A stretch of DNA of 64,000 bases from Candidatus Woesearchaeota archaeon (GCA_964612685.1 CAZTCF010000001.1:83399-147398); one strand, 5' to 3'; shown: positions 11,039-58,438, numbered from the stretch's first letter. Notes: a model not told the origin generated them from the letters alone. Made by a program: numbers and translations.

Positions 11039-12928
11039 ATGATTATGAAGAAAGGAGACAAGGAAAATTGGTATTTTATATTTGGAATTTTTCTTATATC
11101 TTTTTTATTATTTTATAAAGCGGCATTATCTAAAGATCCTCTTGGATTAGACACTCTTGGACATTTAAGTAAAGTTTCTTATATTTTTGAATATCCTTTT
11201 TCCAATTGGGATATGTCCTGGTATTCGGGTACTTTATTTTTGAAGTTATACCCTCCTTTATTTTATTATATCGCGGCATTTTCTTCATTAATTTTATCTG
11301 ATACTTTTTTTGCAGCGAATCTTCTTTCTTTTTTAAGTTTGGTATTAACTGTTTTTGGGATATATTTTCTTGTTGAATACTTAACAAAAAATAAAAAAGT
11401 TGCATTCTTTTCTTCTTTGGGTTTTTTGACCGTAATTAGCCTATCTTATTATTGGATATCTGCAGGTAATCTTCCTTATTTTTTTGCATTATTCACTATT
11501 CCCTTTTCTCTTTATTTCTTGGAACGTTCAATTAGAGAGAAGGAAAAGAAATTTTTTGTTTTGTACTCTTTGTTTTTCTTTGTAGGTATACTTACACATA
11601 TAGTTGTTGGTTTTATTATTGGTATTTCTATGGTTATTCGTATATTCTTGGGAGGGTTTAGTTTTTATAACTTTAAGAGAATTTTAATCTATGGAGGCAT
11701 ACCTGTTTTGCTGGCAGGATTTTGGTTTTTTCCATTTATTGTTAATCCCACTTCTTTAATCGAGTATGAAGGGTATATACCTAATCTTTTACAGCCGTTT
11801 GGTTTTAATGATTTTTTCGCTTGGGGTTTGCATGCTGGCGGAATAGGAATATTTTCATTTTTGTTTCTGTTCGCAGTTTTAATATTTGTGCTTTTTTTTG
11901 GAGGTTTTAAAAATAATAAAAATATTTTATTTTATTCTATCATCTCTGCTTTTTTATTGTTTATCTTTTTTGGAGGTTTAGGTAAACATTATCCCTATGG
12001 TGTTGATGCTGTGAGATTTGTACTTCCACTATCTGTATTTATTGTGGTTTTTGTTGGGTTAGTTATAAACTCATTTAAATTCAAGGGTAATAAGATATTT
12101 ATCTTTTCTTTGATTTTATTGTTAGTGTTTGGATTATTTTGGAATTATAAGATTGTTAATAAAAATTTTGAGGATTATTCTTATTATGATGAATGGAGTA
12201 GATATCAAATATTTAGTAATATAATTGATAAAGGGTTCCCTCTTGAGAATGAGTTTCAGAATTACAGGTTTGGTACATGTAAATTTGTTTTCTCTGAGAA
12301 TCTTAATTATTTTATGCCAAATGTTCCTCAGACTTTTGGGTATCAAGATGTAGGTATGTTGAATCCTTCTAGATATTATGATATGCGCTGGAATATTTTT
12401 ATCTCAGAAGACGTTGAAGATTCTATATATTGGCTTGACTGGTTTGGCATAAAATATTTTGAGATAGAAAACTCCGAAGTTAGTGACAAGTTTGTGAATG
12501 ATTCGCGTTTTAATCTTTTAATGGATTCCTCTGGAGGATATAATTTTAAAATGTATGAATATAAAGATTCTAAACCAATTATCTCAATAGCGGATAATTT
12601 ACAAGAGGGTGTTCCTGGAAATTTAAAAGAATTTGATTTTAATAGAGTAAGTCCAGATATTATTGAGATATCTTACAAACCTTCTGATGAAAACGATGTA
12701 ATCTTGTTTAAAGAATTTTATCATAAGAACTGGCAAGCAAAAGAATTGCCTTATGGAGATATACTGGAAGTTAAAGAAGTGGGTCCAGGTTTTATGGGGG
12801 TGTATCCACAAGCAGGGTCTGAAGGAGTTGTATTCTTTTATAAAAAAAGTTTCTTTGATTATATCTCAATTTTTTTAAGCTTCTTTGGTATATTCTTACT
12901 CTTGAAATTAGGTAAGAAAGCTTTGTGA
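11039..12928 (+). CDS. Polytopic membrane protein, probable GT-C-fold glycosyltransferase
   Basis: About 13 predicted TM helices in the N-terminal ~370 aa, then a ~230-aa soluble domain and a final TM helix. The context (GT2 plus GtrA) supports the call. No WWDYG oligosaccharyltransferase motif was seen. Confidence 0.4.
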   Translation: MIMKKGDKENWYFIFGIFLISFLLFYKAALSKDPLGLDTLGHLSKVSYIFEYPFSNWDMSWYSGTLFLKLYPPLFYYIAAFSSLILSDTFFAANLLSFLSLVLTVFGIYFLVEYLTKNKKVAFFSSLGFLTVISLSYYWISAGNLPYFFALFTIPFSLYFLERSIREKEKKFFVLYSLFFFVGILTHIVVGFIIGISMVIRIFLGGFSFYNFKRILIYGGIPVLLAGFWFFPFIVNPTSLIEYEGYIPNLLQPFGFNDFFAWGLHAGGIGIFSFLFLFAVLIFVLFFGGFKNNKNILFYSIISAFLLFIFFGGLGKHYPYGVDAVRFVLPLSVFIVVFVGLVINSFKFKGNKIFIFSLILLLVFGLFWNYKIVNKNFEDYSYYDEWSRYQIFSNIIDKGFPLENEFQNYRFGTCKFVFSENLNYFMPNVPQTFGYQDVGMLNPSRYYDMRWNIFISEDVEDSIYWLDWFGIKYFEIENSEVSDKFVNDSRFNLLMDSSGGYNFKMYEYKDSKPIISIADNLQEGVPGNLKEFDFNRVSPDIIEISYKPSDENDVILFKEFYHKNWQAKELPYGDILEVKEVGPGFMGVYPQAGSEGVVFFYKKSFFDYISIFLSFFGIFLLLKLGKKAL

Positions 12929-13804: not shown

Positions 13805-15034
13805 ATGGACGGAATTACAGTTATTTATCTGGTTTATATGTTTATAGCATTTTATTTTTTATTTTTATTTATAATAATCTATATTCAAAATAGAAAGCAA
13901 TTCTTCTATTATCCAAAACCAAATAAAAATTATTCTTTGAGTATTGTAATCCCCTGTTATAATGAGGGTAACACAATTGAGGCAACTGTTAAATCTGTTT
14001 TAGATGCAGGATATAAAAATTTAAAGAAGGTCATTGTGGTTGACGATTGTTCAAAAGATAACTCTTATGAGATAATAAAGAATCTTGAAAAGAAATATTC
14101 TAAGGTAATGGCAGTACAAACACCAAAAAATACTGGGTGCGCTGCAGGTTCAAAGAATTATGGGGCTAAATTTGTTGATACAGAATTAATCGGCTTTAGT
14201 GATGGAGATTCATTCATAGAAAAAGGTTCGATAGACAAAGTTGTTGGTTTTTTTAATGATAAAAGCATAGGAAGCGTTACATGTTCCGTTCTTGTTGAGA
14301 ATAGAAACAAGTTTATTGAAAAGGTTCAGTCCATAGAGTATAAAGTCATAAAGTTCTCAAGGAAACTTCTTGAGTTTATCGATTCAATTTATGTAACTCC
14401 TGGGCCATTGGGGATATTTAGAAAGAGCGCATTTGATGAAATAGGAGGGTTTGATGAGAAAAATTTAACTGAGGATATCGAGATAACTTGGCATCTTCAA
14501 GCTGTGGGTTATAAAGTTAAGATGTCCGTTCCTGCAAGGGCATATACTATTGCTCCATCAAAGATAAAGGATTGGTTTAAACAGAGAAATAGGTGGAATA
14601 TCGGGGGTTTACAGACGATTGCAAAGTATAACAAAGATTGGTTTAAAAAAGGAATGCTTGGAAATTTTATTCTCCCCTTCTTTGTTTTTTCATGGCTTAT
14701 AGGATTATTTGGATTAGGAGTTCTTGTTTATAGGCTATTAAGGGTGTTAATACTTAGGACATTCTCCACTACATATTCTATTCAAACTCAAACAGCACTT
14801 ATAAGGTTTGAAGATATAAGCTTAATGCCAAATATACTTGTATTCTTTGGTTTAACGATATTTTTTCTTAGTTTATGGTTCACTTTTCTTGCGTTAGTGA
14901 ATATGAAGGAAGACAAGCATAAAAGAGAAAACTTCTTTGTGATAGGTTTTTATATGATTTTCTATGTTCTTATATATCCGATAATTTTAATAAGTTCAGC
15001 TTATAAATTTTTAAGAGGACATAGAAAATGGTAG
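13805..15034 (+). CDS. Membrane-integrated processive family 2 glycosyltransferase (cellulose/chitin/hyaluronan-synthase-like)
   Basis: N-terminal TM helix, GT2 core (IVIPCYNEG, VVDDCSKD, SDGDS, TEDIE), the QxxRW motif as QRNRW, and 4-5 C-terminal TM helices. Confidence 0.75.
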   Translation: MDGITVIYLVYMFIAFYFLFLFIIIYIQNRKQFFYYPKPNKNYSLSIVIPCYNEGNTIEATVKSVLDAGYKNLKKVIVVDDCSKDNSYEIIKNLEKKYSKVMAVQTPKNTGCAAGSKNYGAKFVDTELIGFSDGDSFIEKGSIDKVVGFFNDKSIGSVTCSVLVENRNKFIEKVQSIEYKVIKFSRKLLEFIDSIYVTPGPLGIFRKSAFDEIGGFDEKNLTEDIEITWHLQAVGYKVKMSVPARAYTIAPSKIKDWFKQRNRWNIGGLQTIAKYNKDWFKKGMLGNFILPFFVFSWLIGLFGLGVLVYRLLRVLILRTFSTTYSIQTQTALIRFEDISLMPNILVFFGLTIFFLSLWFTFLALVNMKEDKHKRENFFVIGFYMIFYVLIYPIILISSAYKFLRGHRKW

Positions 15035-47716: not shown

Positions 47717-48292
47717 TTACTTAACAATTTCTCCAAATGTTTCTTCAGAAATTCCTGCTGAGTTCGCTTCATCTGTATCTATATGTAATGCCAATTCGTA
47801 CTTTTTTGATATTCTTGGAATTATGTTATGGAAGGTTATTTTTCTTTGTCCAGATGTTTTTATTGATATTATTTGGTGCGGTTTTAATTTTAATTTTTTT
47901 GCTTGTTCTTCTGAGCAGTGCAAATGTCTTTGGGCAATTATCACAGGTATTTTTGTTTTTCCTTTTGGTCCTTTAACAGATGCGATAGTTGTTCCGTGTG
48001 TGTCTCCAGACATTCTTATTTTGGGCAGGGGGTTTAAATTTAAATTATGGGCATCAGTTAGAGACATTTCTATTTGAGAGGATTCTCTTAATGGCCCCAA
48101 TACTCTTACATTAACTTTTTCTTTTCCGTTTATTATCTCTATTTTCTGTTTAGAAGCAAATTCTCCTGGTTGGGATAATTTTTTTATTGGTTCCAATTTT
48201 TTATTTTTTCCAAATAATTTTTCAAAATCTTCCTTATTTAGATGCACATGCCTTGCTGAAACTTCAACAGGTATCTTTATTTTACTTTTCAT
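47717..48292 (-). CDS. pduL: PduL-type phosphate acyltransferase (phosphotransacetylase)
   Basis: Two PduL repeats, VSARHVHL...LFG and IAQRHLHC, plus LSQPGEFA, VLGPLR..SQIE.SLTDA and HIDTDEANSAGI. Confidence 0.8.
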   Translation of the reverse strand: MKSKIKIPVEVSARHVHLNKEDFEKLFGKNKKLEPIKKLSQPGEFASKQKIEIINGKEKVNVRVLGPLRESSQIEMSLTDAHNLNLNPLPKIRMSGDTHGTTIASVKGPKGKTKIPVIIAQRHLHCSEEQAKKLKLKPHQIISIKTSGQRKITFHNIIPRISKKYELALHIDTDEANSAGISEETFGEIVK

Positions 48293-49365
48293 TCTAAAAT
48301 TTTTAAAACCTCTTCTGCAGCCATACTTTCCTCATCAGATTTTATTACATAAACTTTTATTTTTGAGAATATTGAAGATATTTTTTCATCGTTCCCATTG
48401 TTTTTATTTTTATTTAATTTTAATCCCAAGAATTTTAATTTAGCGCATATATCTTTACGTAATTTTGGAACATTTTCTCCAATTGCTGCTGTGAAAACTA
48501 AATTATCTAATCCATTTAATACTGTGATGTATGAACCAATTACTTTAGTTATTCGATATACAAATAGATCATAAGCGAGTTTGCATTCTTTATGTTCTTC
48601 CATTCCTTTTAGGACATCTCTGAAATCATTATAACCAGATATTCCTTTCAATCCAGATTGGTTGGTTAAGATTTCTTCTACATCATATTTCTTCTTTTGT
48701 AAATAAAGGATTATTCCCGGGTCTATGCTTCCTGAGCGAGTTCCCATCATGATTCCTTCTAATGGAGTCAATCCCATACTTGTATCTAAAGGTTTCCCGT
48801 CTTTTATTGCAGATATGCTTGAACCAGAACCAAGATGACAGACAATTGTTCTTCCTTTTAATTTTTTTGAAGAGTATTCATGAGATAATCCATGAAAGCC
48901 ATATCTTCTTATATTATATTTCTCGGTTATTTCTTTTGGTATAGCATACGTTTTTGCAACTTCTGGGATATTTGCAAAAAACATTGTATCAAATACAGCA
49001 TACTGTGGTTTTTGGAATTTTTCACATAATTCAATTACCATCAATTGTTTTGGGTTATGTAATGGTGCGAATTCAGAGAATGTTTTTATCTTCTCTTTGA
49101 CTTCTGAGGTTATCATTGAAGTTTCTTTAAGCTCTCCTCCATGTACTACCCTGTGTGCTAGAACATCTATATTTCTATCTATAAATTGTTGGAATATTTC
49201 TTGTACTGCGTTTTCGTAATCTTTTTTTGATTTTAATTTTTCTTTATTTCCATACTCCAATAATTTTAAATCTTCAAATAAACTATACTTTATACTTGAA
49301 CTTCCAACGTTAAACACTAATATTTTTTTTTGCATAGAATTTTTCCCCACATTATTTTTTTCCAT
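48289..49365 (-). CDS. ackA: Acetate kinase
   Basis: ILVFNVGSSSIKYSLF, HRVVHGG, YGFHGLSHEY and the ASKHA fold. Its stop overlaps the pduL start by 4 nt. Confidence 0.85.
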   Translation of the reverse strand: MEKNNVGKNSMQKKILVFNVGSSSIKYSLFEDLKLLEYGNKEKLKSKKDYENAVQEIFQQFIDRNIDVLAHRVVHGGELKETSMITSEVKEKIKTFSEFAPLHNPKQLMVIELCEKFQKPQYAVFDTMFFANIPEVAKTYAIPKEITEKYNIRRYGFHGLSHEYSSKKLKGRTIVCHLGSGSSISAIKDGKPLDTSMGLTPLEGIMMGTRSGSIDPGIILYLQKKKYDVEEILTNQSGLKGISGYNDFRDVLKGMEEHKECKLAYDLFVYRITKVIGSYITVLNGLDNLVFTAAIGENVPKLRKDICAKLKFLGLKLNKNKNNGNDEKISSIFSKIKVYVIKSDEESMAAEEVLKILE

Positions 49366-49620: not shown

Positions 49621-49637
49621 TATGCCCCGATAGTTCA
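49621..49637 (+). repeat. 17-nt direct repeat: an upstream duplicate of the tRNA-Glu 5' end (partner at 49672-49688)
   Basis: tatgccccgatagttca occurs twice, 51 nt apart. The upstream copy continues as ...GAAC.TCTCGG but has no anticodon arm or 3' half. Confidence 0.8.
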
Positions 49638-49651: not shown

Positions 49652-49674
49652 CTAGAACTCTCGGAATAACTTAT

Positions 49675-49846
49675 GCCCCGATAGTTCAGAGGCCAAGAAC
49701 GCCACCCTCTCAAATCATGCCGGAGTTCAATCGATGAGATAATAATTCCAGCCTTCTCTAAGGCAGGCTAGTTAGTTTTATCGCCTTATATTTTCTTAGG
49801 GCGATGGAGTACGGTGGTAACCCGAGTTCGAATCTCGGCCGGGGCG
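49675..49846 (+). tRNA. tRNA-Glu (anticodon CUC) interrupted by a ~99-nt intron at the canonical 37/38 position
   Basis: Exon 1 is 49675-49712: acceptor GCCCCGA, D arm GTTC/GAAC, anticodon stem CCACC, loop CTCTCA. Exon 2 is 49812-49846: C, GGTGG, TAAC, T arm CCGAG-TTCGAAT-CTCGG, acceptor CCGGGGC, discriminator G. A bulge-helix-bulge is present: CTCT (49707-10) pairs with GGAG (49806-09), flanked by the 3-nt bulges CAA (49711-13) and TAC (49810-12), and ATC (49714-16) pairs with GAT (49803-05). There is one A:C mismatch at 7:66. Confidence 0.75.
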
Positions 49847-49854
49847 TTTATCCT
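49836..49854 (+). repeat. Left copy of a perfect 19-nt direct repeat (att-like), covering the last 11 nt of tRNA-Glu plus 8 nt
   Basis: cggccggggcgtttatcct is identical at 57136-57154, exactly 7,300 bp away. Confidence 0.9.
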
Positions 49855-49990
49855 TAGGTTTAACATAGCTATATAAAACGAATAATTCTGCGTAGAAATG
49901 ATGCAGTTTTTGAACAGAGAGGTGAAATAAATGGTTTGGTGCTTAGAAAGGGAGGTGAACTAGTTAAATTCTTAAAAGCTAAACAAAATA

Positions 49991-50019: not shown

Positions 50020-50172
50020 ATGCCTAAAAAGCAGATAATTGTAAAATTTGAGGGGTCTGAGATTCTTGAGAGAAAAGCTTCTAAGTTTGGAACTGGTGCT
50101 CATGTAATTATTCCTAAAGAATACATAAACAAAAAAGTAAAAATTATTATGGAGGATGAAGATGACAAGTAA
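50020..50172 (+). CDS. DUF2080-like / AbrB-type small protein
   Basis: The ATG at 50020 gives MPKKQIIVKFEGSEILERKASKFGTGAHVIIPKEYINKKVKIIMEDEDDK. The pattern (V.F.G.E..E....K.G....V.IPKEWIGKKVKII) matches my recollection of archaeal DUF2080, described as a putative transposon-encoded protein. It overlaps the giant ORF start by 17 nt. Confidence 0.5.
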   Translation: MPKKQIIVKFEGSEILERKASKFGTGAHVIIPKEYINKKVKIIMEDEDDK

Positions 50173-53100
50173 AAAGTATTTTTTTGCTTTAATCAGCATA
50201 ATTTTGATAACACTCTTATCCTATGAGGTTTTAGCAGGGACTAATGTTCCAGATTGTGGAATAACAATCAATATCTCAGGACAATATGAATTAAACGCGG
50301 GAATTTCTGGGACAGCAACTTGTCTAACAATTAATACAAGTAATATAGAACTAGATTGCAAAGGAAATACTATTTCTTATGGTTCAGATGGAGTTAATGG
50401 AAGAATTGGAATATCTGTTGCCCTTGGAACAGTTTATCTTGAAAATATCACAATAAAAAATTGCATAATTCAAGACACAAATCCTGCTGGAACCACGGGG
50501 TATGGAATATATGCATTAAGAACATCTAATTCATATATAATTAACAATACAATTAATACAAGCGGAACTGCTACAAATCACGGGATTTATTTATCTACTG
50601 CAAGTCAAAATAATCTTCTTGAAAATAATACCATAAATGCTTATGGAAGCACTACAGGAAACTATGGGATTTATTTAATTTATCAATCAAATAATAACAC
50701 AATTAGAAACAATGAAGTAAAGGCAACAGGAACAACAACAAGCTATGCACTCATGCTTTATAGCTCAGAATATAATTTAATAGAAAACAACAATTTTTCA
50801 AGTTACACTCTTTTAACAACAGGAAATTCAGATATGAATGTAGTTTATTTATACTATGGTTCAAGATATAATATTTTAAGAAATAATTACATTTATTCAG
50901 ATGCTGAAGCAAGAAATTACCATATTTATCTAAATTTAAATAATAATTATAATATCATTGCAAATAATACTATAATTCCAAATGATGATGAAGGAACAAA
51001 CCCTGGAATTTATATTCTTGGTTCTGATTACAATCTTGTAGAGAATAATACCATTAGAACAAATGGAACAACAGCCAATTATGGGGTTTGGTTAGGAGCA
51101 TCTTCAACAGGAAATATGATTAATAAAAATAATATTATCACAAATGGAACTACAACCAACAATTACGGAATTTATTTGGTAAGTGCACTTTACAATAATA
51201 TAACAGAAAATCAGATCTCCTCAAATGGATTAACAACAGGTAATGCAGGAATAACTTTATCAAGTGCCCAAAGAAATTACCTTGCAAGAAATAATATTTC
51301 TACAAGTGGGACAACAACAGGATATGGAATTTATTTGACTGGTTCTGATTATGACACAGTAGAAGATAATGATATTTCTACATTTGGAACAAGCACTGCA
51401 AATGATGGAATCTATTTAATCTCTTCTACAAACAATAACATAATAAACAACAGAATAACTGCAAATAGCACCTCTTCTGGAAATATTGGTATTGCTTTAT
51501 ATACCTCAACAGGAAATTCTTATGTTTATAATAATACTATAAAAACTGATGGAACAACTACAAATTATGGTATTTTATTACAGACTGCAAATAATAATTC
51601 GATAGTAAATAATCAAATATCAACCAGTGGAACAACTACAACAAATCATGGAATTTATCTTTATATAAGTGCAAATGCAAACAAAATCTACTATAATAAT
51701 ATCTCTACATATGGCACAACAACAAATCATGGGATTTCACTTAGCACAACTTCAGATGGAAATGAAATTGTTGGAAATTATATAATAGCTAATGGCTCAA
51801 CAACAGCCTCCGCAACAACAACAAATAATTTTGGAATTGCTGCTGCTACAAGTTGTTATAATAATCTTATGGAAAATAATACAATACTAAATTCCGGAGG
51901 AAGGTATAACTATGGTATATATATTTCAGTAGAATCTGGATATTCTACAATTAGAGGAAATAATATTACTACTGGAGGAAGTGGGGCCACAAATGCAGGA
52001 ATTTATCTTTCAGAAAGCAGAAACAACCTTCTAGAAGAAAATATAATCTCTACTTCAGGTTCTGCTACAGATTACGGTATTTATCTGTATTCTAATGCAA
52101 AATATAATTTTGTTAAGAAAAATAATATTACAACCTCAGGAAGTACTAATTCTTATGGAATTCTTCTTGATGCAGTAATTCCAAACTTCCCCCACAATAA
52201 TTCTTTTCAAGAAAATAATTTTATTAGTATTGCTGGAACAGAATTTAGATTTGCTGATGCAGAAATAGATGAAAATTATTTAATTAGCCAGATTATTGAC
52301 AGTTACTTATTTACTGGAATTGGAAGCAAAATGATTGTTAGAAATGACTCTGCAGGAGAAATAAAATTCTTAGATAGATTAACTGGTTCTGGAACAGGAT
52401 TTAGTGATGATGTATACATTTTAGAGAATTATGCTTTTATTGATTCGAGTATCCCAGGATTAAACAAGTCAGCAGAGATAACCATTTATAATTTACCAAC
52501 AACTTCAAATGAATTACAAATTTACAGGAATGGTATAATCTGCAGTGATTGTTTTAATTTAACTTCAATGCAAGCAGGAAATGTAACATTTAATGTAACA
52601 CAAGGAGGAGGATACTCAATTAATTCCTCAAGTTCATCTCCTTTAATAGAATTAGATTTCCCTGAAAATGATTATTTAACAAATCAGCAAAATATTAATT
52701 TTAATTTTACAGCTAGAGATGATTCTGTAGGAGATTTAAATTGTAGCATTTATATTGATTCTATTTTAAATCAAACCAATTCAACAACTCAAAATAATAC
52801 TCTAACTAATTTTGCTGCTAGTGGATTAACTGAAGGAAATCATAACTGGAATATTGAATGTTTTGATTCAGCAGGAAATAGAAATATTTCTGAAACAATA
52901 AATTTTACAATAACAATTTCACAATCATCCTCATTATTTAATTATCCAGAGAATAAATCTTATTTTAATAATTTAGACTTTATATTGTTAAATTATACTG
53001 TTTTAGATTTAGATTTAAAGATAATGACTGCTTGGATTTATGGGGATGAAATTCTTCTAAATACAACTTCAGGATTAACTAATGGTTCATCTTTAGTTTA

Positions 53101-56100
53101 CAATTGGACAAGTTTAGATTTAGGACAATATAACTGGTCTATAATAATCTGGAATGGAATAAAGAACTCTTCTATTGAATATTCTTACTTTAATAATATT
53201 AATTTAACAATAAATTGTGAAGCAGGAGGAGATTATCTTGAAGATCCAACTGTTTTAATTCAAGGAAGAATAAATGACAGTAGCGGGATAGTTTCATTAA
53301 GTTCACAAATAATTAATATTTCTATTTACAATGATTCCACAGAGGAAATAATCACTTCTTCAAATATAACCACAGAATCAAATGGTGTATTTAATAGTAT
53401 ATTTCCTGGATTGGAAATAGGAAATTACACTGTTTATACAAAAGTTAATTATCAAGGAATTGAAATAAATAGTTCAGACTCATTTAAAATTTCTCTTGGA
53501 TATGAAGCAGGTTACAATGCAGGATTTATTGCTGGAAATGAATCAGGATATATTTCTGGATTTGATTATGGTAATATCACAGGATTTAATTTAGGAAATA
53601 TCACAGGATTTATACTTGGAAACAATACTGGTTTCACATTAGGAAATACAACTGGATTTGTATACGGTAACCTCACAGGATTTGTTTTAGGAAATTCAAC
53701 TGGTTACATTTTAGGTAATGCAACTGGATTTACATTAGGAAATTATACTGGGTTTATATTAGGAAATCAAACAGGATTTATAATAGGAAATATTTCAGGT
53801 TTCAATCTTGGTAATTCAACCGGTTTTACACTTGGAAATTATACTGGATTCATATTAGGAAACATTTCAGGATTCTACTTTGGAAACCAGACAGGTTATA
53901 CTACAGGTTACAATGCAGGATTTATTGCTGGAAATGAATCAGGATATATTTCTGGATTTGATTATGGTAATATCACAGGATTTAATTTAGGAAATATCAC
54001 AGGATTTATACTTGGAAACAATACTGGTTTCACATTGGGCAACTCAACTGGTTATACCTTGGGATTTAACACAGGTAATATAACCGGATTTACTCTAGGT
54101 AATACTACCGGCTTTGTATACGGAAATAATACTGGTTATATTTTAGGATTTAATACAGGCAACTTAACAGGCTTCACATTAGGAAACACAACTGGCTTCG
54201 TTCTTGGCAACTCTACAGGTTATATTTTAGGTAATGCAACTGGCTTTGTATATGGTAACACAACAGGATTCATATTAGGAAACACAACGGGATTTGTATA
54301 TGGAAATATCACTGGATTTGCTTTGGGTAATTCAACAGGATTTACACTTGGAAATTTAACAGGTTATATTCTTGGAAATCAAACAGGTTATAACGCAGGA
54401 TTCAGCACAGGAAACACAACTGGATTTAATCTAGGAAATACTACAGGTTTCACATACGGAAATCTTTCAGGATTTGATCTAGGTAATGCCACGGGTTATA
54501 CCTTGGGTTATAATGCTGGTGTTAATGTTAGCAATCGCACTTCAGCATCCCTAGTCTTGGATAAGATTGCAAGTTTGCAAAATATAACAAATGGAACTAT
54601 TTCATATAATGTAACTTTAAGATTAACAAACAAAGGAGGAAGCAATTCAACAAATGTTAACATAACAGATTTAGATTATGGTTCTAACTTTACAATTGGA
54701 AATTTAACAGCAGGAGAATCAATTACAAGAAGCTATCTTATTAATTTCACAAGAAATATGACAACATATTCAAATGCAACATCAATTGCTCATGCATATG
54801 GTATTGATTCTTATTCATCTGGACAAATTTTGGCAAACTCTAGCTCAATGAATTTACCTGTCCCATCAAATGAATCTGGGCAGCAATTAACTTTGATTAA
54901 GAATGTATTTTATATTAATCAAACATTCACAGATGTAAATTATACTGTTAGTTTTGAAGTTATTAATTCCGGAGGATCAGATTTAACAGGGATTACAATA
55001 ATTGATGACGATTTGGGTATTTCTGATGTAATAAGCTTGAGTAAAACACAAAGTTATACCTACTCGGGATCATTAATAATATCTAAGAATCAGGATAATA
55101 AAGAGCAAATATTTTCAATAGCAAGAGGAACTGTAAATGCTGTTATTTATTCTTCAAATCAAATAAAAGTTTTAATTCCAGGATATGGTGGAGGTCCAAA
55201 TGATGTAAGCATTAATGCTCCTACATCTGTTTTTAATAACACCAATTTCAATGTGGATATAACTGTGAAGAATAAAAATAAAGACATAGGCCAGGACTTT
55301 GTTGTAACTTATTGGCTCTTGAGCAATGACGAGATTTCAATATATTCAACTGGAGCTCAAACTCTTTATGTTGGAGGAAATGATAATACCAATGCAACTA
55401 CAATTGTATTCTTATCTCCTGCAATTAATGGAACATATAAAATAAGGGCAAATGTGAGCGGAACAGGAGTAAGTGTTCAAGCTACTGCTTTTTCAACAAT
55501 TCTTGTTACGTATCCTTCAAATGAAACTGCAAATGAAACTCCAGTAAATCCTCCGCACGGAGGAGGTGGAGGTAGCAGAATAAGCTGTGTATATATCTGG
55601 GAGTGTGGTTCTTGGAGCCTATGTGCAGATGATGGAACTCAATCAAGAACATGTACTAATACAGGAACCTGTACAGGAATAGAAGGAAAACCAGCAGAAA
55701 AAATGAATTGCTTAGAGGTTTCTTCTGATATTGTATTAAAATTAAGTCAATTAAATTTAACTGAAAATCAAAGTTTAGAATTTAATATTGATTTGATTGA
55801 GAAGAAATCCTATGAAAACAAAGATATACAGATAACATATTCTATCTTTAATAAAACAAATATAGAGGTATTCACTAAAACAGAGACTCGTTCACTTGAG
55901 ACAAATATAAGTTATAAGGAGATTTTGGATGAATTAATGCTTACTCCAGGAGAATATACATTAAAAGTACATATATTCTATGGCAACTCTCAAAGTTCAG
56001 AAGAGGTACAATCATTTATTATAAAAGAAGAAGGTAAAAATAATATTGGAAGTAAATTACTTCTTGAGTTAACACCCGAAACAAATTTTTTAACTTACTT

Positions 56101-56365
56101 GGCAATATTTGTAATCCTTATCTTATTAATATCGCTGTTTGTGATTATGAAAAAGAAGAGAGATGTTGATGAAGTTGACTTATTGATAAAAGAAGGAAAA
56201 AGGAATATTGACAATGAAAATTTTGATGAAGCATTAGATGTCTATCCTGTTCTTAAGAGCTTATATAAACACAAATATAAAGGGGACCCATCTGCTTATG
56301 AAAAGATTACTTCTTACTCTCAATTTATTTTAAAAAGTATTAAGGATAAATTAAAAAAAGACTAG
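50156..56365 (+). CDS. Giant (2,069 aa) membrane-anchored surface protein: parallel beta-helix repeats, beta-sandwich modules, GNxTGFxL sequon array, Cys-rich module and C-terminal TM anchor
   Basis: Signal-like N-terminus (KKYFFALISIILITLLSYEVLAG; alternative ATG at 50162 after GGAGG). Roughly two dozen ~22-aa PbH1-type repeats (NNTI.T.GT.T.NYGIYL) lie at ~50340-52260. The GNxTGFxL array is at 53498-54520. CARDB/DUF11-like segments lie at ~54540-55500. The Cys module is at 55586-55711. The TM helix FLTYLAIFVILILLISLFVIM (56087-56149) is followed by KKKR and a ~70-aa tail. Confidence 0.85.
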   Translation: MKMTSKKYFFALISIILITLLSYEVLAGTNVPDCGITINISGQYELNAGISGTATCLTINTSNIELDCKGNTISYGSDGVNGRIGISVALGTVYLENITIKNCIIQDTNPAGTTGYGIYALRTSNSYIINNTINTSGTATNHGIYLSTASQNNLLENNTINAYGSTTGNYGIYLIYQSNNNTIRNNEVKATGTTTSYALMLYSSEYNLIENNNFSSYTLLTTGNSDMNVVYLYYGSRYNILRNNYIYSDAEARNYHIYLNLNNNYNIIANNTIIPNDDEGTNPGIYILGSDYNLVENNTIRTNGTTANYGVWLGASSTGNMINKNNIITNGTTTNNYGIYLVSALYNNITENQISSNGLTTGNAGITLSSAQRNYLARNNISTSGTTTGYGIYLTGSDYDTVEDNDISTFGTSTANDGIYLISSTNNNIINNRITANSTSSGNIGIALYTSTGNSYVYNNTIKTDGTTTNYGILLQTANNNSIVNNQISTSGTTTTNHGIYLYISANANKIYYNNISTYGTTTNHGISLSTTSDGNEIVGNYIIANGSTTASATTTNNFGIAAATSCYNNLMENNTILNSGGRYNYGIYISVESGYSTIRGNNITTGGSGATNAGIYLSESRNNLLEENIISTSGSATDYGIYLYSNAKYNFVKKNNITTSGSTNSYGILLDAVIPNFPHNNSFQENNFISIAGTEFRFADAEIDENYLISQIIDSYLFTGIGSKMIVRNDSAGEIKFLDRLTGSGTGFSDDVYILENYAFIDSSIPGLNKSAEITIYNLPTTSNELQIYRNGIICSDCFNLTSMQAGNVTFNVTQGGGYSINSSSSSPLIELDFPENDYLTNQQNINFNFTARDDSVGDLNCSIYIDSILNQTNSTTQNNTLTNFAASGLTEGNHNWNIECFDSAGNRNISETINFTITISQSSSLFNYPENKSYFNNLDFILLNYTVLDLDLKIMTAWIYGDEILLNTTSGLTNGSSLVYNWTSLDLGQYNWSIIIWNGIKNSSIEYSYFNNINLTINCEAGGDYLEDPTVLIQGRINDSSGIVSLSSQIINISIYNDSTEEIITSSNITTESNGVFNSIFPGLEIGNYTVYTKVNYQGIEINSSDSFKISLGYEAGYNAGFIAGNESGYISGFDYGNITGFNLGNITGFILGNNTGFTLGNTTGFVYGNLTGFVLGNSTGYILGNATGFTLGNYTGFILGNQTGFIIGNISGFNLGNSTGFTLGNYTGFILGNISGFYFGNQTGYTTGYNAGFIAGNESGYISGFDYGNITGFNLGNITGFILGNNTGFTLGNSTGYTLGFNTGNITGFTLGNTTGFVYGNNTGYILGFNTGNLTGFTLGNTTGFVLGNSTGYILGNATGFVYGNTTGFILGNTTGFVYGNITGFALGNSTGFTLGNLTGYILGNQTGYNAGFSTGNTTGFNLGNTTGFTYGNLSGFDLGNATGYTLGYNAGVNVSNRTSASLVLDKIASLQNITNGTISYNVTLRLTNKGGSNSTNVNITDLDYGSNFTIGNLTAGESITRSYLINFTRNMTTYSNATSIAHAYGIDSYSSGQILANSSSMNLPVPSNESGQQLTLIKNVFYINQTFTDVNYTVSFEVINSGGSDLTGITIIDDDLGISDVISLSKTQSYTYSGSLIISKNQDNKEQIFSIARGTVNAVIYSSNQIKVLIPGYGGGPNDVSINAPTSVFNNTNFNVDITVKNKNKDIGQDFVVTYWLLSNDEISIYSTGAQTLYVGGNDNTNATTIVFLSPAINGTYKIRANVSGTGVSVQATAFSTILVTYPSNETANETPVNPPHGGGGGSRISCVYIWECGSWSLCADDGTQSRTCTNTGTCTGIEGKPAEKMNCLEVSSDIVLKLSQLNLTENQSLEFNIDLIEKKSYENKDIQITYSIFNKTNIEVFTKTETRSLETNISYKEILDELMLTPGEYTLKVHIFYGNSQSSEEVQSFIIKEEGKNNIGSKLLLELTPETNFLTYLAIFVILILLISLFVIMKKKRDVDEVDLLIKEGKRNIDNENFDEALDVYPVLKSLYKHKYKGDPSAYEKITSYSQFILKSIKDKLKKD
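53498..54520 (+). repeat. In-frame 24-nt (octapeptide GNxTGFxL) tandem repeat array inside the giant ORF
   Basis: About 40 consecutive units. By my count, about 37 carry an N-x-S/T sequon (NIT, NTT, NST, NAT, NLT, NYT, NQT, NIS, NES). Confidence 0.9.
53508..53640 (+). repeat. Perfect 133-nt internal duplication (partner at 53904-54036)
   Basis: Base-by-base comparison shows identity from caggttacaatgc... to ...ggtttcacatt. The offset is 396 nt (132 codons). The flanking bases differ on both sides. Confidence 0.9.
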
Positions 56366-56474: not shown

Positions 56475-56786
56475 ATGGAAACTCAAATAGTAAAAAAGAA
56501 TAAAAGTTACATTGAAACAAATGATATAGCTAGAAGCCCAACACTTCAAACAGTCCTTATGGTTGAAAAATTCATAAAGGATAATTCAGGAGAATACAAA
56601 AAAACAGATTTATTCAAAAATCTCCCAAAAAAAGTAATGTGGCAAACTTTTCAGGTTATAATGGAGTATTTAGAAGAGAATTTGAGGGTAGCTTATGATA
56701 ATGAAGGATACATTGTTTATATCTGGAATCCAGAGTTTGTGGAGAGATTCAGAAATAAACCAGAATTAGAATGGAATGCAAAGTAA
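56475..56786 (+). CDS. Hypothetical protein, putative antitoxin/partner of the RelE-like gene
   Basis: 103-aa ORF that overlaps the downstream toxin-like gene by 16 nt. It has no classical RHH/AbrB motif and may be a winged helix. Confidence 0.35.
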   Translation: METQIVKKNKSYIETNDIARSPTLQTVLMVEKFIKDNSGEYKKTDLFKNLPKKVMWQTFQVIMEYLEENLRVAYDNEGYIVYIWNPEFVERFRNKPELEWNAK

Positions 56787-57091
56787 ATTTTATTGATTTG
56801 GAATTGAAGAATGCCTTTGAATATTTAGAAAAATCAGATCCAAGACTCTTCAAAGAGGTAAATAAAGCAATACAAGAAATATGCCAAAATTCTTTTTGTG
56901 GAAGAAATGTAAAGAAAAAATTAATTCCTAAAGAGCTTGTTCAAAAGCATAAAATAGACAATCTTTGGATTTATAACTTGAGGAAAGACTGGAGACTTTT
57001 ATATTCTGTTGGTAGAGACGAAATTGAACTTATAGCAGTTATTCTTGATTGGATGGATCATAAAGATTATGAAAAATTATTCAAATTCTAA
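56771..57091 (+). CDS. RelE/ParE-superfamily toxin-like protein
   Basis: The C-terminal pattern NLWIYNLRKDWRLLYSVGRDEIELIAVILDWMDHKDYEKLF parallels archaeal RelE (LYR.R.GDYR.IY.V....I.IL.I..R..AY). Confidence 0.55.
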   Translation: MECKVNFIDLELKNAFEYLEKSDPRLFKEVNKAIQEICQNSFCGRNVKKKLIPKELVQKHKIDNLWIYNLRKDWRLLYSVGRDEIELIAVILDWMDHKDYEKLFKF

Positions 57092-57832: not shown

Positions 57833-58438
57833 TTACTTTCCAAGTTTCTTTTTTATTTCTTTTCCTAAATAGTATGCAGAACCAAAGAATATAACTCCTG
57901 GAAGGAATGCAATTCCGAGAGTAGGAATCAGCAAGCTTGTTCCTATTGTTCCTATTGTTCCTGCTCCAACTGTTTCTAGTATCTTAACTGCATGTGATAC
58001 ATTTTGTTCAACATTTCTTTGAAGAGCATCAATTTGCATTATCATCTTTCCTTTTCTTAATATTCTTACTTTTTTATCCTCTTCTGATATTATAACAACT
58101 AAATTATCTCCTGTTGCTGCACTTATTGCTGCGGAGTGTCTTGTTCCAAAATTTTTGAATACTTTTGTGGATTTTATTCTCACCCCGTATGCTGAAACAA
58201 ATCCTTTTTTATTTATTATAACTGCACCATCCATTAAGGCTAACGATTCTAATAGTTTTGGATTCTCTACTGCTTTAAATGGAGGAATTGATTGATTAAC
58301 AAGTGGGCTGTACTTTGTTTCTCCCACAACGAAAAGTGCTCCTTCTCCTCTTTTTGCAATTCTTAATCCCACTTGTATGAGTGTTTCTTCAAGTTTTTTA
58401 GAATCTTTGTCTTTTTTAGTAGTATTTTTTTCTTTCAT
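57833..58438 (-). CDS. Diadenylate cyclase (DisA_N/DAC domain) with a C-terminal membrane anchor
   Basis: GALFVVGE, DGAVIINKKG (DGA motif), GTRHSAAISA (RHR-type motif), then the hydrophobic tail TIGTSLLIPTLGIAFLPGVIFFGSAYYLG. Confidence 0.7.
   Translation of the reverse strand: MKEKNTTKKDKDSKKLEETLIQVGLRIAKRGEGALFVVGETKYSPLVNQSIPPFKAVENPKLLESLALMDGAVIINKKGFVSAYGVRIKSTKVFKNFGTRHSAAISAATGDNLVVIISEEDKKVRILRKGKMIMQIDALQRNVEQNVSHAVKILETVGAGTIGTIGTSLLIPTLGIAFLPGVIFFGSAYYLGKEIKKKLGK

Follow-up and report, generated by a model that had tools for sequence, protein, structure and literature searches.

A giant membrane-anchored beta-helix protein of a Woesearchaeota archaeon as a candidate host-attachment fibre

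Introduction

DPANN lineages are thought to live attached to hosts. Which kind of surface protein such an archaeon might employ is the question raised by a very large gene in a stretch of 64,000 nucleotides (nt) from Candidatus Woesearchaeota archaeon (GCA_964612685.1, CAZTCF010000001.1:83399-147398). This whole stretch is referred to below as the window, and its positions are counted from the first letter. A first-pass annotation, made from the sequence alone, had described the product of this gene as a giant beta-helix surface protein and a possible adhesin. The analysis presented here leads us to regard it as reasonably likely that this DPANN archaeon carries the protein on its surface as an N-glycosylated attachment fibre with a type I membrane anchor. 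Outward from the membrane, the modelled order of its parts is a helical tail, a transmembrane (TM) helix, a beta-sandwich, a 6-Cys module, a Gly5 hinge, three further beta-sandwiches, a glycine-tetrad array, immunoglobulin (Ig)-like modules and a beta-helix.

Results

Integrity of the gene and selection

The open reading frame (ORF) extends over positions 50156..56365 of the plus strand and encodes 2,069 amino acids (aa) when counted from the ATG at 50156. The frame is uninterrupted over 6.2 kb, and the extent originally assigned to it is therefore confirmed. The true start is probably the ATG at 50162, which would give 2,067 aa, because a GGAGG motif is located 6 nt 5' of this codon and the database copies begin with MTSKK. 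Database copy P0001 is 2,067 aa long. The window, with a G+C content of about 30%, holds archaeal housekeeping genes for RFC subunits, family B DNA polymerase, Cdc48, Nre, topoisomerase and aminoacyl-tRNA synthetases, which indicates that the giant gene is chromosomal.

Information on selection was obtained from the copy in locus L090 (13-6243), which was compared with window positions 50162-56362 for synonymous divergence (dS) and for the ratio of non-synonymous to synonymous divergence (dN/dS). Residues 1-1462 showed a dS of 0.001 (1 synonymous and 3 non-synonymous differences) and the tail a dS of 0.019 (1 synonymous and 1 non-synonymous difference), and in both parts the differences are too few for dN/dS to be meaningful. 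Residues 1463-1975 showed a dS of 0.17-0.21 and a dN/dS of about 0.2. Furthermore, the 700 nt 3' of the stop codon were 99.9% identical in the two copies. Since the divergence is confined to residues 1463-1975 and the flanks are near-identical, we conclude that a stalk cassette of 1.5 kb was replaced by homologous recombination in L090.

The long exact repeats that are present in the array of this gene can mislead assemblers, and this would be the way in which the ORF could represent a repeat-driven assembly artefact, if it is not simply a decaying pseudogene. We consider such a non-functional status extremely improbable. Besides the uninterrupted frame, the protein sequence outside the array is identical in L001 (JGI 3300010355) and differs by a single substitution in L012, both of which come from independent samples. 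Moreover, 150 whole-protein homologues were found at E ≤ 1e-5 among the candidates scored, and the domain order is conserved in the closest of these, which are 44-57% identical. The N-terminal 1,100 residues also gave an AlphaFold2 (AF2) model of high confidence. Lastly, the purifying selection that is evident from the comparison with L090 disposes of the view that the gene is a pseudogene. In sum, purifying selection acts on a gene that is both conserved and intact.

Membrane topology

Hydropathy analysis revealed two hydrophobic segments, namely residues 8-28 and residues 1978-2000, the latter being followed by KKKR. The N-terminus (residues 1-27; 50156..50236, plus strand) is signal-peptide-like, being K-rich, then hydrophobic, and ending in EVLA before a G, and AF2 models a helix at residues 7-19 that is followed by a linker with low predicted local distance difference test (pLDDT) values. 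The second segment (56087..56155, plus strand) has a hydropathy peak of 3.07, is modelled as a helix by AF2 and was assigned as the single TM helix. It precedes a predicted cytoplasmic tail of 69 aa (56156..56362, plus strand) with two predicted helices and AF2 pLDDT values of about 76-85. A signal-like N-terminus, one TM helix and a cytoplasmic tail of about 70 aa had also been proposed in the first-pass annotation, and hydropathy and AF2 agree with each of them. The two hydrophobic segments are what one would expect of a cleavable signal peptide and of a type I anchor that leaves the tail in the cytoplasm. Likewise, no model for PGF-CTERM/archaeosortase or surface layer (S-layer) proteins in NCBIfam or Pfam matched the protein, as would be expected from the earlier statement that it lacks such a terminus.

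When used as a query, the TM helix and tail gave no match in a set of 5.8 billion proteins, and the helical tail of about 69 aa is also conserved in homologue P0004. Most relatives instead contain a PRC-barrel (PF05239) after the TM helix, which is recorded in P0005-P0022. In archaea, PRC-barrel proteins that stand alone have a part in cell division by FtsZ/SepF (bioRxiv 10.1101/2023.03.28.534520). In locus L002 (2684-3088 and 12218-13366), genes for SepF and FtsZ are found no more than 3-7 kb away from the giant gene, possibly by coincidence.

Domain architecture of the ectodomain

The head was modelled with AF2 for residues 3-1102 on the basis of 42 homologues, resulting in a mean pLDDT of 87.3. 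Three-strand rungs extend from about residue 30 to 700 with pLDDT values of about 85-98, and together they form a right-handed parallel beta-helix (50243..52255, plus strand) that has an N-terminal cap with conserved Cys residues. This fold, which had already been suggested from the sequence alone, is supported by matches above the cutoffs to the Pfam families Beta_helix (PF13229; E 2.7e-27, 95.8 bits with a cutoff of 25.9) and NosD (PF05048; E 2.3e-24, 86.4 bits with a cutoff of 23.6), and to the NCBIfam parallel-beta-helix repeat TIGR03804 (22.1 with a cutoff of 19.45, in 8 stretches). The repeats had been described as roughly two dozen in number and about 22 aa in length; the number stands, with about 24 rungs, but the period is 27-28 aa. 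The possibility that the protein is a true NosD (TIGR04247) was rejected, as it reached 74.4 bits where the cutoff is 300 and no nos genes are located nearby.

Foldseek searches of the PDB with the head returned generic strings of Ig, FN3 and macroglobulin (MG) domains and one tailspike, the Dettilon tailspike 6f7k, and searches of BFVD returned generic viral beta-helix, tailspike and depolymerase models. The structural matches of the head had low template modelling (TM) scores of 0.2-0.5, and at the level of the predicted model they mirror the generic fold and provide no functional lead. Among the 42 homologues, the only invariant columns of the beta-helix are N, G and C, and no Asp, Glu, His or Lys is invariant or near-invariant. 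In addition, no glycoside-hydrolase or lyase family in Pfam or NCBIfam matched the protein.

The beta-helix is followed by a beta-rich domain (about residues 705-830) and three Ig-like beta-sandwiches that extend to about residue 1095 (52256..53497, plus strand; AF2). Beta-sandwich-like modules had indeed been expected after the helix, and they are backed by the AF2 model together with a Pfam match to Big_13 (E 5.3e-7); Foldseek reads the Ig-like region as strings of FN3, Ig and macroglobulin domains. The next element is a (Gxxx)n array of 348 aa (residues 1115-1462; 53498..54541, plus strand), which we regard as a stalk or spacer.

For the C-terminal half, a second AF2 model was built that covers residues 1041-2069. 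It contains three beta-sandwich stalk modules at about residues 1466-1561, 1578-1674 and 1681-1785 (54542..55525, plus strand; pLDDT 75-90), for which Foldseek finds the MG domains of complement and alpha-2-macroglobulin. In Pfam, these modules stay below the cutoffs for CARDB (E 0.029, 15.0 versus 22.7), BatD (E 0.021, 15.9 versus 24.1) and DUF7507 (0.023), and DUF11 (PF01345) gave no match in the Pfam scan, BatD being a 'DUF11-like' family. The label CARDB/DUF11-like that the modules had been given is therefore not tenable beyond the generic fold. To judge by the models, they resemble CARDB or macroglobulin domains by fold only, and we would describe them as generic beta-sandwich/MG-like.

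A Gly5 linker and a Cys-rich module had been noted in the first-pass annotation and can be read from the sequence as the Pro/Gly linker PPHGGGGG and a module with 6 Cys in 42 aa (55526..55819, plus strand). The Cys residues are spaced C-x5-C-x5-C-x9-C-x5-C-x12-C and the module contains W..C..W..C...G.Q.R.C. Linker and module are both located in a region of low AF2 confidence (residues 1788-1888), and the 6-Cys module is conserved in P0004. A possible likeness to TSP1 is suggested by the W/C motif and by the sole match in the PDB, a non-significant one to a TSP1 domain of THSD7A (E 0.32); TSP1 was not matched in Pfam at E ≤ 10. Closest to the membrane is another beta-sandwich (about residues 1890-1971; 55820..56080, plus strand), which is seen as AF2 strands at residues 850-931 of the model with pLDDT values of about 55-75.

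Distribution of N-glycosylation sequons

The whole protein contains 113 N-x-S/T sequons, compared with 58±6 in shuffled sequences. The observed numbers exceed the expected ones in the array (39 versus 10.3, z 10.6), the Ig region (27 versus 10.7, z 5.9) and the stalk sandwiches (18 versus 8.8, z 3.8), whereas the beta-helix contains 23 sequons with 27.3 expected (z -1.1). The cytoplasmic tail contains none, with 0.4 expected (z -0.6). It had previously been thought that sequons are dense throughout the protein and that this is due to the rungs of the beta-helix. This view cannot be maintained. In the absence of a sequon excess, the beta-helix is merely Asn-rich in composition, as expected for Asn ladders. 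Similarly, the idea of a heavily N-glycosylated fibre projecting from the cell is supported for the ectodomain outside the helix, where sequons are enriched, but not for the rungs, which are at or below the compositional expectation. Since the enrichment is confined to the ectodomain and the tail is devoid of sequons, the predicted topology holds, and the sequon pattern supports both this topology and a predicted glycosylation of the stalk.

The array provides a further indication. Its N-tetrads always contain N and never D, and S or T is found at position +2 in 37 of 37 cases. In contrast, tetrad arrays of phage-fibre-like proteins without signal peptide contain N and D at a ratio of about 1:1, with S or T in just 58% of the N-tetrads. 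The strict use of N with S/T, as opposed to the N/D mixture in phage-type arrays, fits the view that the archaeal arrays have been selected for glycosylation and not for structure alone, and we regard this contrast as the best indirect evidence of such selection.

Elsewhere in the window, a membrane protein of 629 aa with PTPS_related and PMT_2 (GT-C-like) domains is encoded at 11039-12928 (plus strand) and a glycosyltransferase of family 2 (GT2) at 13805-15034 (plus strand). These two proteins are candidate components of a protein-glycosylation pathway that might supply the giant, sequon-rich protein. Among the window ORFs scanned, none was identified as an STT3/AglB gene.

The glycine-tetrad array and its possible folds

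Gly occurs at exactly every fourth residue over 87 tetrads (86 consecutive spacings of 4). GNx[ST] accounts for 37 of the tetrads and G[FY]xx for 48; N-tetrads are never adjacent, and there are nine half-octad slips. The first-pass annotation had recognised a GNxTGFxL sequon array of about 340 aa, which is correct as to its presence and approximate length, but the true period is 4 and not 8. At the DNA level, the units are mostly only about 60-67% identical, which implies that, with the exception of a 133-nt exact duplicate, the repeat is old and has been maintained at the protein level.

Database searches with the array pointed in different directions. Yae1_N (PF09811) matched with an E-value of 1.3e-20 and 73.2 bits (cutoff 27.5) in 11 stretches. 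We rejected the idea that the array is a functional Yae1 cytosolic adaptor in view of its predicted extracellular placement between signal peptide and TM anchor, an AF2 model without helix and the lack of an Lto1-like partner, and the likeness to Yae1_N appears to be one at the repeat level only. The FliH/YscL family was rejected as well, since the best match reached 64.5 bits with a cutoff of 293 and the matches cover the GxxxG region only. Among proteins in the PDB, the C-terminal beta-helix of T4 gp5 was matched in register (phmmer E 1.9e-4, profile E 5.6e-5), and a weak match was obtained to the baseplate hub family phrog_430 (0.0076); the Pfam model Gp5_C did not match the array. AF2 modelled the array with pLDDT values of 25-50, no helix and a period-4 'EE--' pattern.

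We tentatively entertain the possibility that the array forms a homotrimeric triple-stranded beta-helix like the T4 gp5 needle. In the PDB, two phage baseplate spikes account for the significant specific matches, one of them through the C-terminal beta-helix of gp5, and the alignment to gp5 is gap-free over about 10 octads (about 85 residues), with G-N-x-T in common within an octad of the type G-N/D-x-T-x-x-[V/I]-x. Both repeats are fibrous and length-variable. In addition, the composition of the array (G, N, T, F/Y, I/V) is beta- and turn-prone, AF2 predicted no helix, and related (G[ND][VIL]T)n arrays are present in Mtd_N-type proteins resembling phage tail fibres. However, an arrangement in the register of gp5 would turn the conserved F, L, N and T outwards and the variable positions inwards, and gp5 differs from the array in lacking a second Gly at position 5 and an aromatic residue at position 6, in having polar residues at position 8 and in being unglycosylated. 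Moreover, E-values of this size are modest where low-complexity repeats are concerned, and the profile search of the PDB was headed by a low-complexity insert of a pyridoxal kinase, which we dismissed as compositional noise.

Rather unlikely, again by a rough weighing, is an alpha-helical coiled coil with a Gly interface like that of Yae1-Lto1 or FliH. For the Yae1 domain, a helical coiled coil has been predicted in which Gly residues form a continuous interface (PMC12810181). In the GxxxG repeats of FliH, Tyr or Phe occupies more than 45% of the x1 positions, and these repeats are believed to bring about contacts between helices (PMC2674601). The array has an uninterrupted Gly-x3 period and aromatic x1 residues like the repeats of Yae1-Lto1, FliH and YscL, and it passes the Yae1_N threshold by far. 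A strict period of 4 would tolerate the half-octad slips, the order of conservation (G above x1 and x3, and these above x2) fits a Gly-stripe interface, and cap motifs such as GYEAGYNAGFIAG resemble classical Yae1/FliH tetrads. Yet, the Yae1/FliH proteins are short proteins of the cytoplasm with about 10 tetrads and a high content of Ala and charged residues, for which a helical structure is predicted. The array, on the other hand, has about 86 tetrads with alternating N-x-S/T tetrads, is predicted to be extracellular and glycosylated, and contains 25% Gly together with N and T but few helix formers, A, E, Q, K and R being almost absent outside the cap motifs. AF2, which readily gives helices for Yae1, gives none for the array.

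It is about as conceivable as the gp5-like arrangement that neither comparison applies and that the array adopts an extended, glycan-stiffened or otherwise novel tetrad fold. The low AF2 confidence and the 'EE--' pattern would be in accordance with this, whereas a perfect periodicity over 348 residues that is kept in all homologues argues for an ordered structure.

Similar arrays were detected in 1,377 proteins at E ≤ 1e-3, and in 136 at E ≤ 1e-10, among 1.84 billion representative proteins. They fall into a non-aromatic type, G[ND][VIL][TS], in proteins without signal peptide, many of which are phage-fibre-like, and an aromatic type that includes archaeal proteins composed of signal peptide, array and TM anchor, one of them with 92 tetrads. 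Four archaeal homologues that share only the array with the window protein and are otherwise unrelated (P0122, P0123, P0125 and P0152; 550-1,250 aa) have one common layout, in which a signal peptide and an N-terminal beta domain precede a GNxTG[WY]xx array of 41-92 tetrads, and a Gly-rich linker connects this array to a small beta domain, with a TM helix at the C-terminus. The tetrad array thus appears to be a portable stalk module. We found no description of extracellular Yae1_N-type arrays in archaea in the literature, which, in view of the limited search, is weak evidence.

Family, array-length variants and copy number

The family is present in metagenome-assembled genomes (MAGs) of Woese-, Pace-, Nano-, Micr-, Aenigmat- and Nanohalo-archaea, usually under the NCBI name 'right-handed parallel beta-helix repeat-containing protein', and the relatives of the window protein are labelled Woesearchaeota, Pacearchaeota or Nanoarchaeota. 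It is therefore a family that is widespread in DPANN archaea and already annotated. Only 8 of the first 120 homologues carry the array, typically with 37-41 tetrads as in the homologues of 45-55% identity, and P0020 and many other relatives are without it, which identifies the array as a dispensable spacer that is specific for a subclade. A single MAG can contain several members of the family with highly variable architecture: at least 3 loci are present in isolate SURF_65, and in CAYGVI010000003 two copies are near each other.

In copies whose protein sequence is otherwise the same, array-length alleles of 53, 86 and 121 tetrads were observed. The array of the window contains a direct repeat of 133 nt in two exact copies (53508..53640 and 53904..54036, both plus strand), and the 132 aa (396 nt) that are missing from L001 correspond exactly to the spacing between the repeats at 53508 and 53904. 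L012, which is a GTDB representative labelled Woesearchaeota, has an extra 140 aa that are due to a 420-nt tandem duplication. The same gene as in L012, judging from its length of 2,209 aa, its N-terminus and the match statistics, was also encountered in L020 (CAYVFA010000098.1), in a bin named 'uncultured Smithella sp.'. This assignment is probably the result of mis-binning, and it may hint at co-occurrence with syntrophic or methanogenic communities.

The upstream slot and neighbouring genes

Immediately upstream of the giant gene, a DUF2080 ORF of 50 aa (50020..50172, plus strand; Pfam 6.7e-6, 26.2 bits with a cutoff of 21.5) overlaps its start by 11-17 nt. This ORF probably encodes a small DNA-binding regulator that is co-transcribed with the giant gene, and a TATA-like box is located near position 49985. 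A small ORF on the same strand was found directly 5' of the giant gene in all 9 loci that were read via gene calls, and further loci scanned by script had a small ORF in the same slot, the overlap usually being 4-14 nt. The ORFs in this slot encode 43-109 aa (L001, L002, L004, L006-L011, L015, L017, L034, L045 and L078) and belong to at least five families, among them DUF2080, ribbon-helix-helix (RHH), GerE/LuxR helix-turn-helix (HTH), ArsR HTH, winged HTH and DUF7557. The wider neighbourhoods of the relatives' loci are unrelated to one another. From these patterns we infer a conserved regulator slot that is filled by non-orthologous small DNA-binding proteins.

Other features close to the gene include a DUF2061 ORF called on the minus strand in the gap 5' of the giant gene, and a tRNA-Glu(CTC) with a 99-nt intron (49674-49847, plus strand), which was detected by ARAGORN with introns allowed and missed by default ARAGORN and Rfam scans. 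An exact copy of the 14 nt at the 5' end of this tRNA is located 50 nt upstream (49624-49637), and no other copy is present in the window. Downstream, two plus-strand genes with overlapping ends (56475-56786 and 56771-57091) encode an unassigned protein of 103 aa, presumed to be the antitoxin, and a YoeB/ParE-like toxin of 106 aa; this pair is also kept 3' of the gene in L001, L011 and L090. The tRNA, the 'transposon-encoded' DUF2080 ORF and the toxin-antitoxin pair could bring a mobile island to mind. This idea was rejected because the partial tRNA copy lies just 50 nt away, there is no second copy in the window, and the neighbours are housekeeping genes. A gene for a diadenylate cyclase (DAC domain; 57833-58438, minus strand) close downstream points to signalling by cyclic di-AMP. 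The adjoining genes for a PduL-type phosphotransacylase (PTAC) and acetate kinase (47717-49365, minus strand) would constitute an acetate-forming module for substrate-level phosphorylation in a reduced genome.

Discussion

The architecture described above, together with the lifestyle of DPANN archaea, makes a role as an adhesin plausible. In such an attachment fibre, the tip of the beta-helix would contact the surface of a partner, be it glycans or proteins of the host envelope, and the beta-sandwiches and the Gly-tetrad array would form a glycan-shielded spacer that sets the reach. With about 4.8 Å per rung and about 4 nm per sandwich, this reach can be estimated at tens of nm, and it might shift in steps of about 132-140 aa through recombination between the long exact repeats in the array, while the stalk modules may be swapped by homologous recombination. 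Expression would be controlled by the small DNA-binding-type protein encoded just 5', which is probably co-transcribed, and the cytoplasmic tail, or the PRC barrel that replaces it in most relatives, may couple the fibre to something inside the cell. The suggestion in the first-pass annotation that the protein may form a cell-cell contact organelle overstates what a single gene shows.

Several observations weigh against this interpretation. No recognisable lectin or ligand-binding module is present in the protein. The NxT motif is also found in the GNxT repeats of the unglycosylated T4 gp5 needle, and NxT in the array may thus be partly structural. The pLDDT values of 25-50 for the array render the estimates of fibre length rough. 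Furthermore, the arrays differ in length precisely where long exact repeats (133 and 377 nt) are located, and these differences may represent either rapid recombinational variation or short-read assembly errors. Lastly, the upstream ORFs are taken to be regulators by virtue of family membership, and DUF2080 is a family without known function.

The main remaining alternative to an attachment fibre is a structural S-layer-type envelope protein, consisting of a stalk and a beta-rich head that builds a canopy, as in tetrabrachion- or SlaB-like proteins. Indeed, the C-terminal TM anchor, the long spacer, the dense N-glycosylation sites and the distal beta-rich domain could also belong to such a protein, and the S-layer proteins of DPANN archaea are largely unidentified (bioRxiv 10.1101/2023.10.27.564410). 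We nevertheless consider this unlikely, as no S-layer model matched, the family is multi-copy with an architecture that varies even within single MAGs, and close relatives can do without the array. A small upstream gene dedicated to regulation would likewise suggest regulated expression and not the constitutive bulk expression of an envelope component. Somewhat less likely still is that the protein is a surface-tethered polysaccharide depolymerase of the pectate-lyase/tailspike type, which would cut host envelope glycans to open a contact site. Such a role has been proposed for the pectin-lyase-like proteins of Nanobdella (bioRxiv 10.1101/2023.10.27.564410), and the head shares its fold with phage tailspikes and exopolysaccharide (EPS) depolymerases, as reflected by the matches to 6f7k and to BFVD models. 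These matches are generic, with low TM scores, and no glycoside-hydrolase or lyase family was recognised. Importantly for the choice between the two functions, adhesion is ranked above enzymatic attack because the beta-helix has no invariant acidic, His or Lys residues across the 42 homologues, although lineage-specific catalytic residues may exist. The window protein also differs from tailspikes in that its monomer-sized helix belongs to a membrane-anchored cellular protein encoded in a housekeeping gene context.

The closest known kind of protein is represented by the pectin-lyase-like proteins MJ1_0451, MJ1_0701 and MJ1_0776 of Nanobdella and by the beta-helix giant surface proteins of DPANN archaea. 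In Nanobdella aerobiophila, a cultivated DPANN archaeon, glycosylated pectin-lyase-like surface proteins have been proposed as host-interaction factors (bioRxiv 10.1101/2023.10.27.564410). Like these, the window protein has a signal peptide, a parallel beta-helix, Ig-like folds and tens of sequons, and in both cases a role at the symbiont-host interface has been suggested. With 2,069 aa it is larger than the Nanobdella proteins of 908-1,320 aa. From its DPANN kin it is set apart by the (Gxxx)n array of its subclade between the Ig and stalk modules and by the 6-Cys module, and from most close relatives by the short helical tail in place of a PRC-barrel. The window protein is therefore a further member of the known glycosylated beta-helix surface proteins of DPANN archaea, with the perfectly regular glycine array as its most unusual part.

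A comparison can also be made with tetrabrachion of Staphylothermus marinus and other stalked archaeal surface glycoproteins, which resemble the predicted fibre in being anchored in the membrane at the C-terminus, in being heavily N-glycosylated and in carrying a beta-rich domain at the far end of a long rod-like spacer. The stalk of tetrabrachion is a four-helix coiled coil based on 11-residue repeats, whereas the stalk of the window protein would consist of beta-sandwiches and Gly tetrads. We know of no sequence relationship between the two proteins.

No description of an extracellular Gly-tetrad array with sequons, of its length polymorphism, of the cassette mosaic or of the regulator slot was found in the searchable literature. 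A more far-reaching reading, which we put forward as a doubtful one, is that the GNx[ST]/G[FYW]xx array represents an undescribed extracellular N-glycosylated stalk that occurs in several archaeal lineages, in proteins with a signal peptide at one end and a TM anchor at the other, and that here serves as a length-switching spacer (53/86/121 tetrads) in a variable host-attachment system, the reach of the beta-helix tip being altered by recombination between the long exact repeats. If this were true, the system, with its exchangeable stalk cassettes and small regulator, would have a counterpart in bacterial and fungal pathogens, whose adhesins vary in their repeats.

Genes of this class have been annotated in numerous genomes and have found their way into the literature, and the present finding is therefore more useful than surprising. 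Little is known about how DPANN archaea attach to their hosts and exploit them, and giant surface proteins are the foremost candidates that genomes have to offer. The locus provides a full domain map of one such protein that is shown to be under selection, and it raises testable properties, namely a stalk that differs in length, a stalk cassette that recombines and a conserved regulator slot upstream. Lastly, the Gly-tetrad array links three separate classes of repeats, i.e. the GxxxG repeats of Yae1/FliH, the phage gp5 needle and fibre repeats, and the arrays of archaeal surface proteins, and it is a good target for structure determination.

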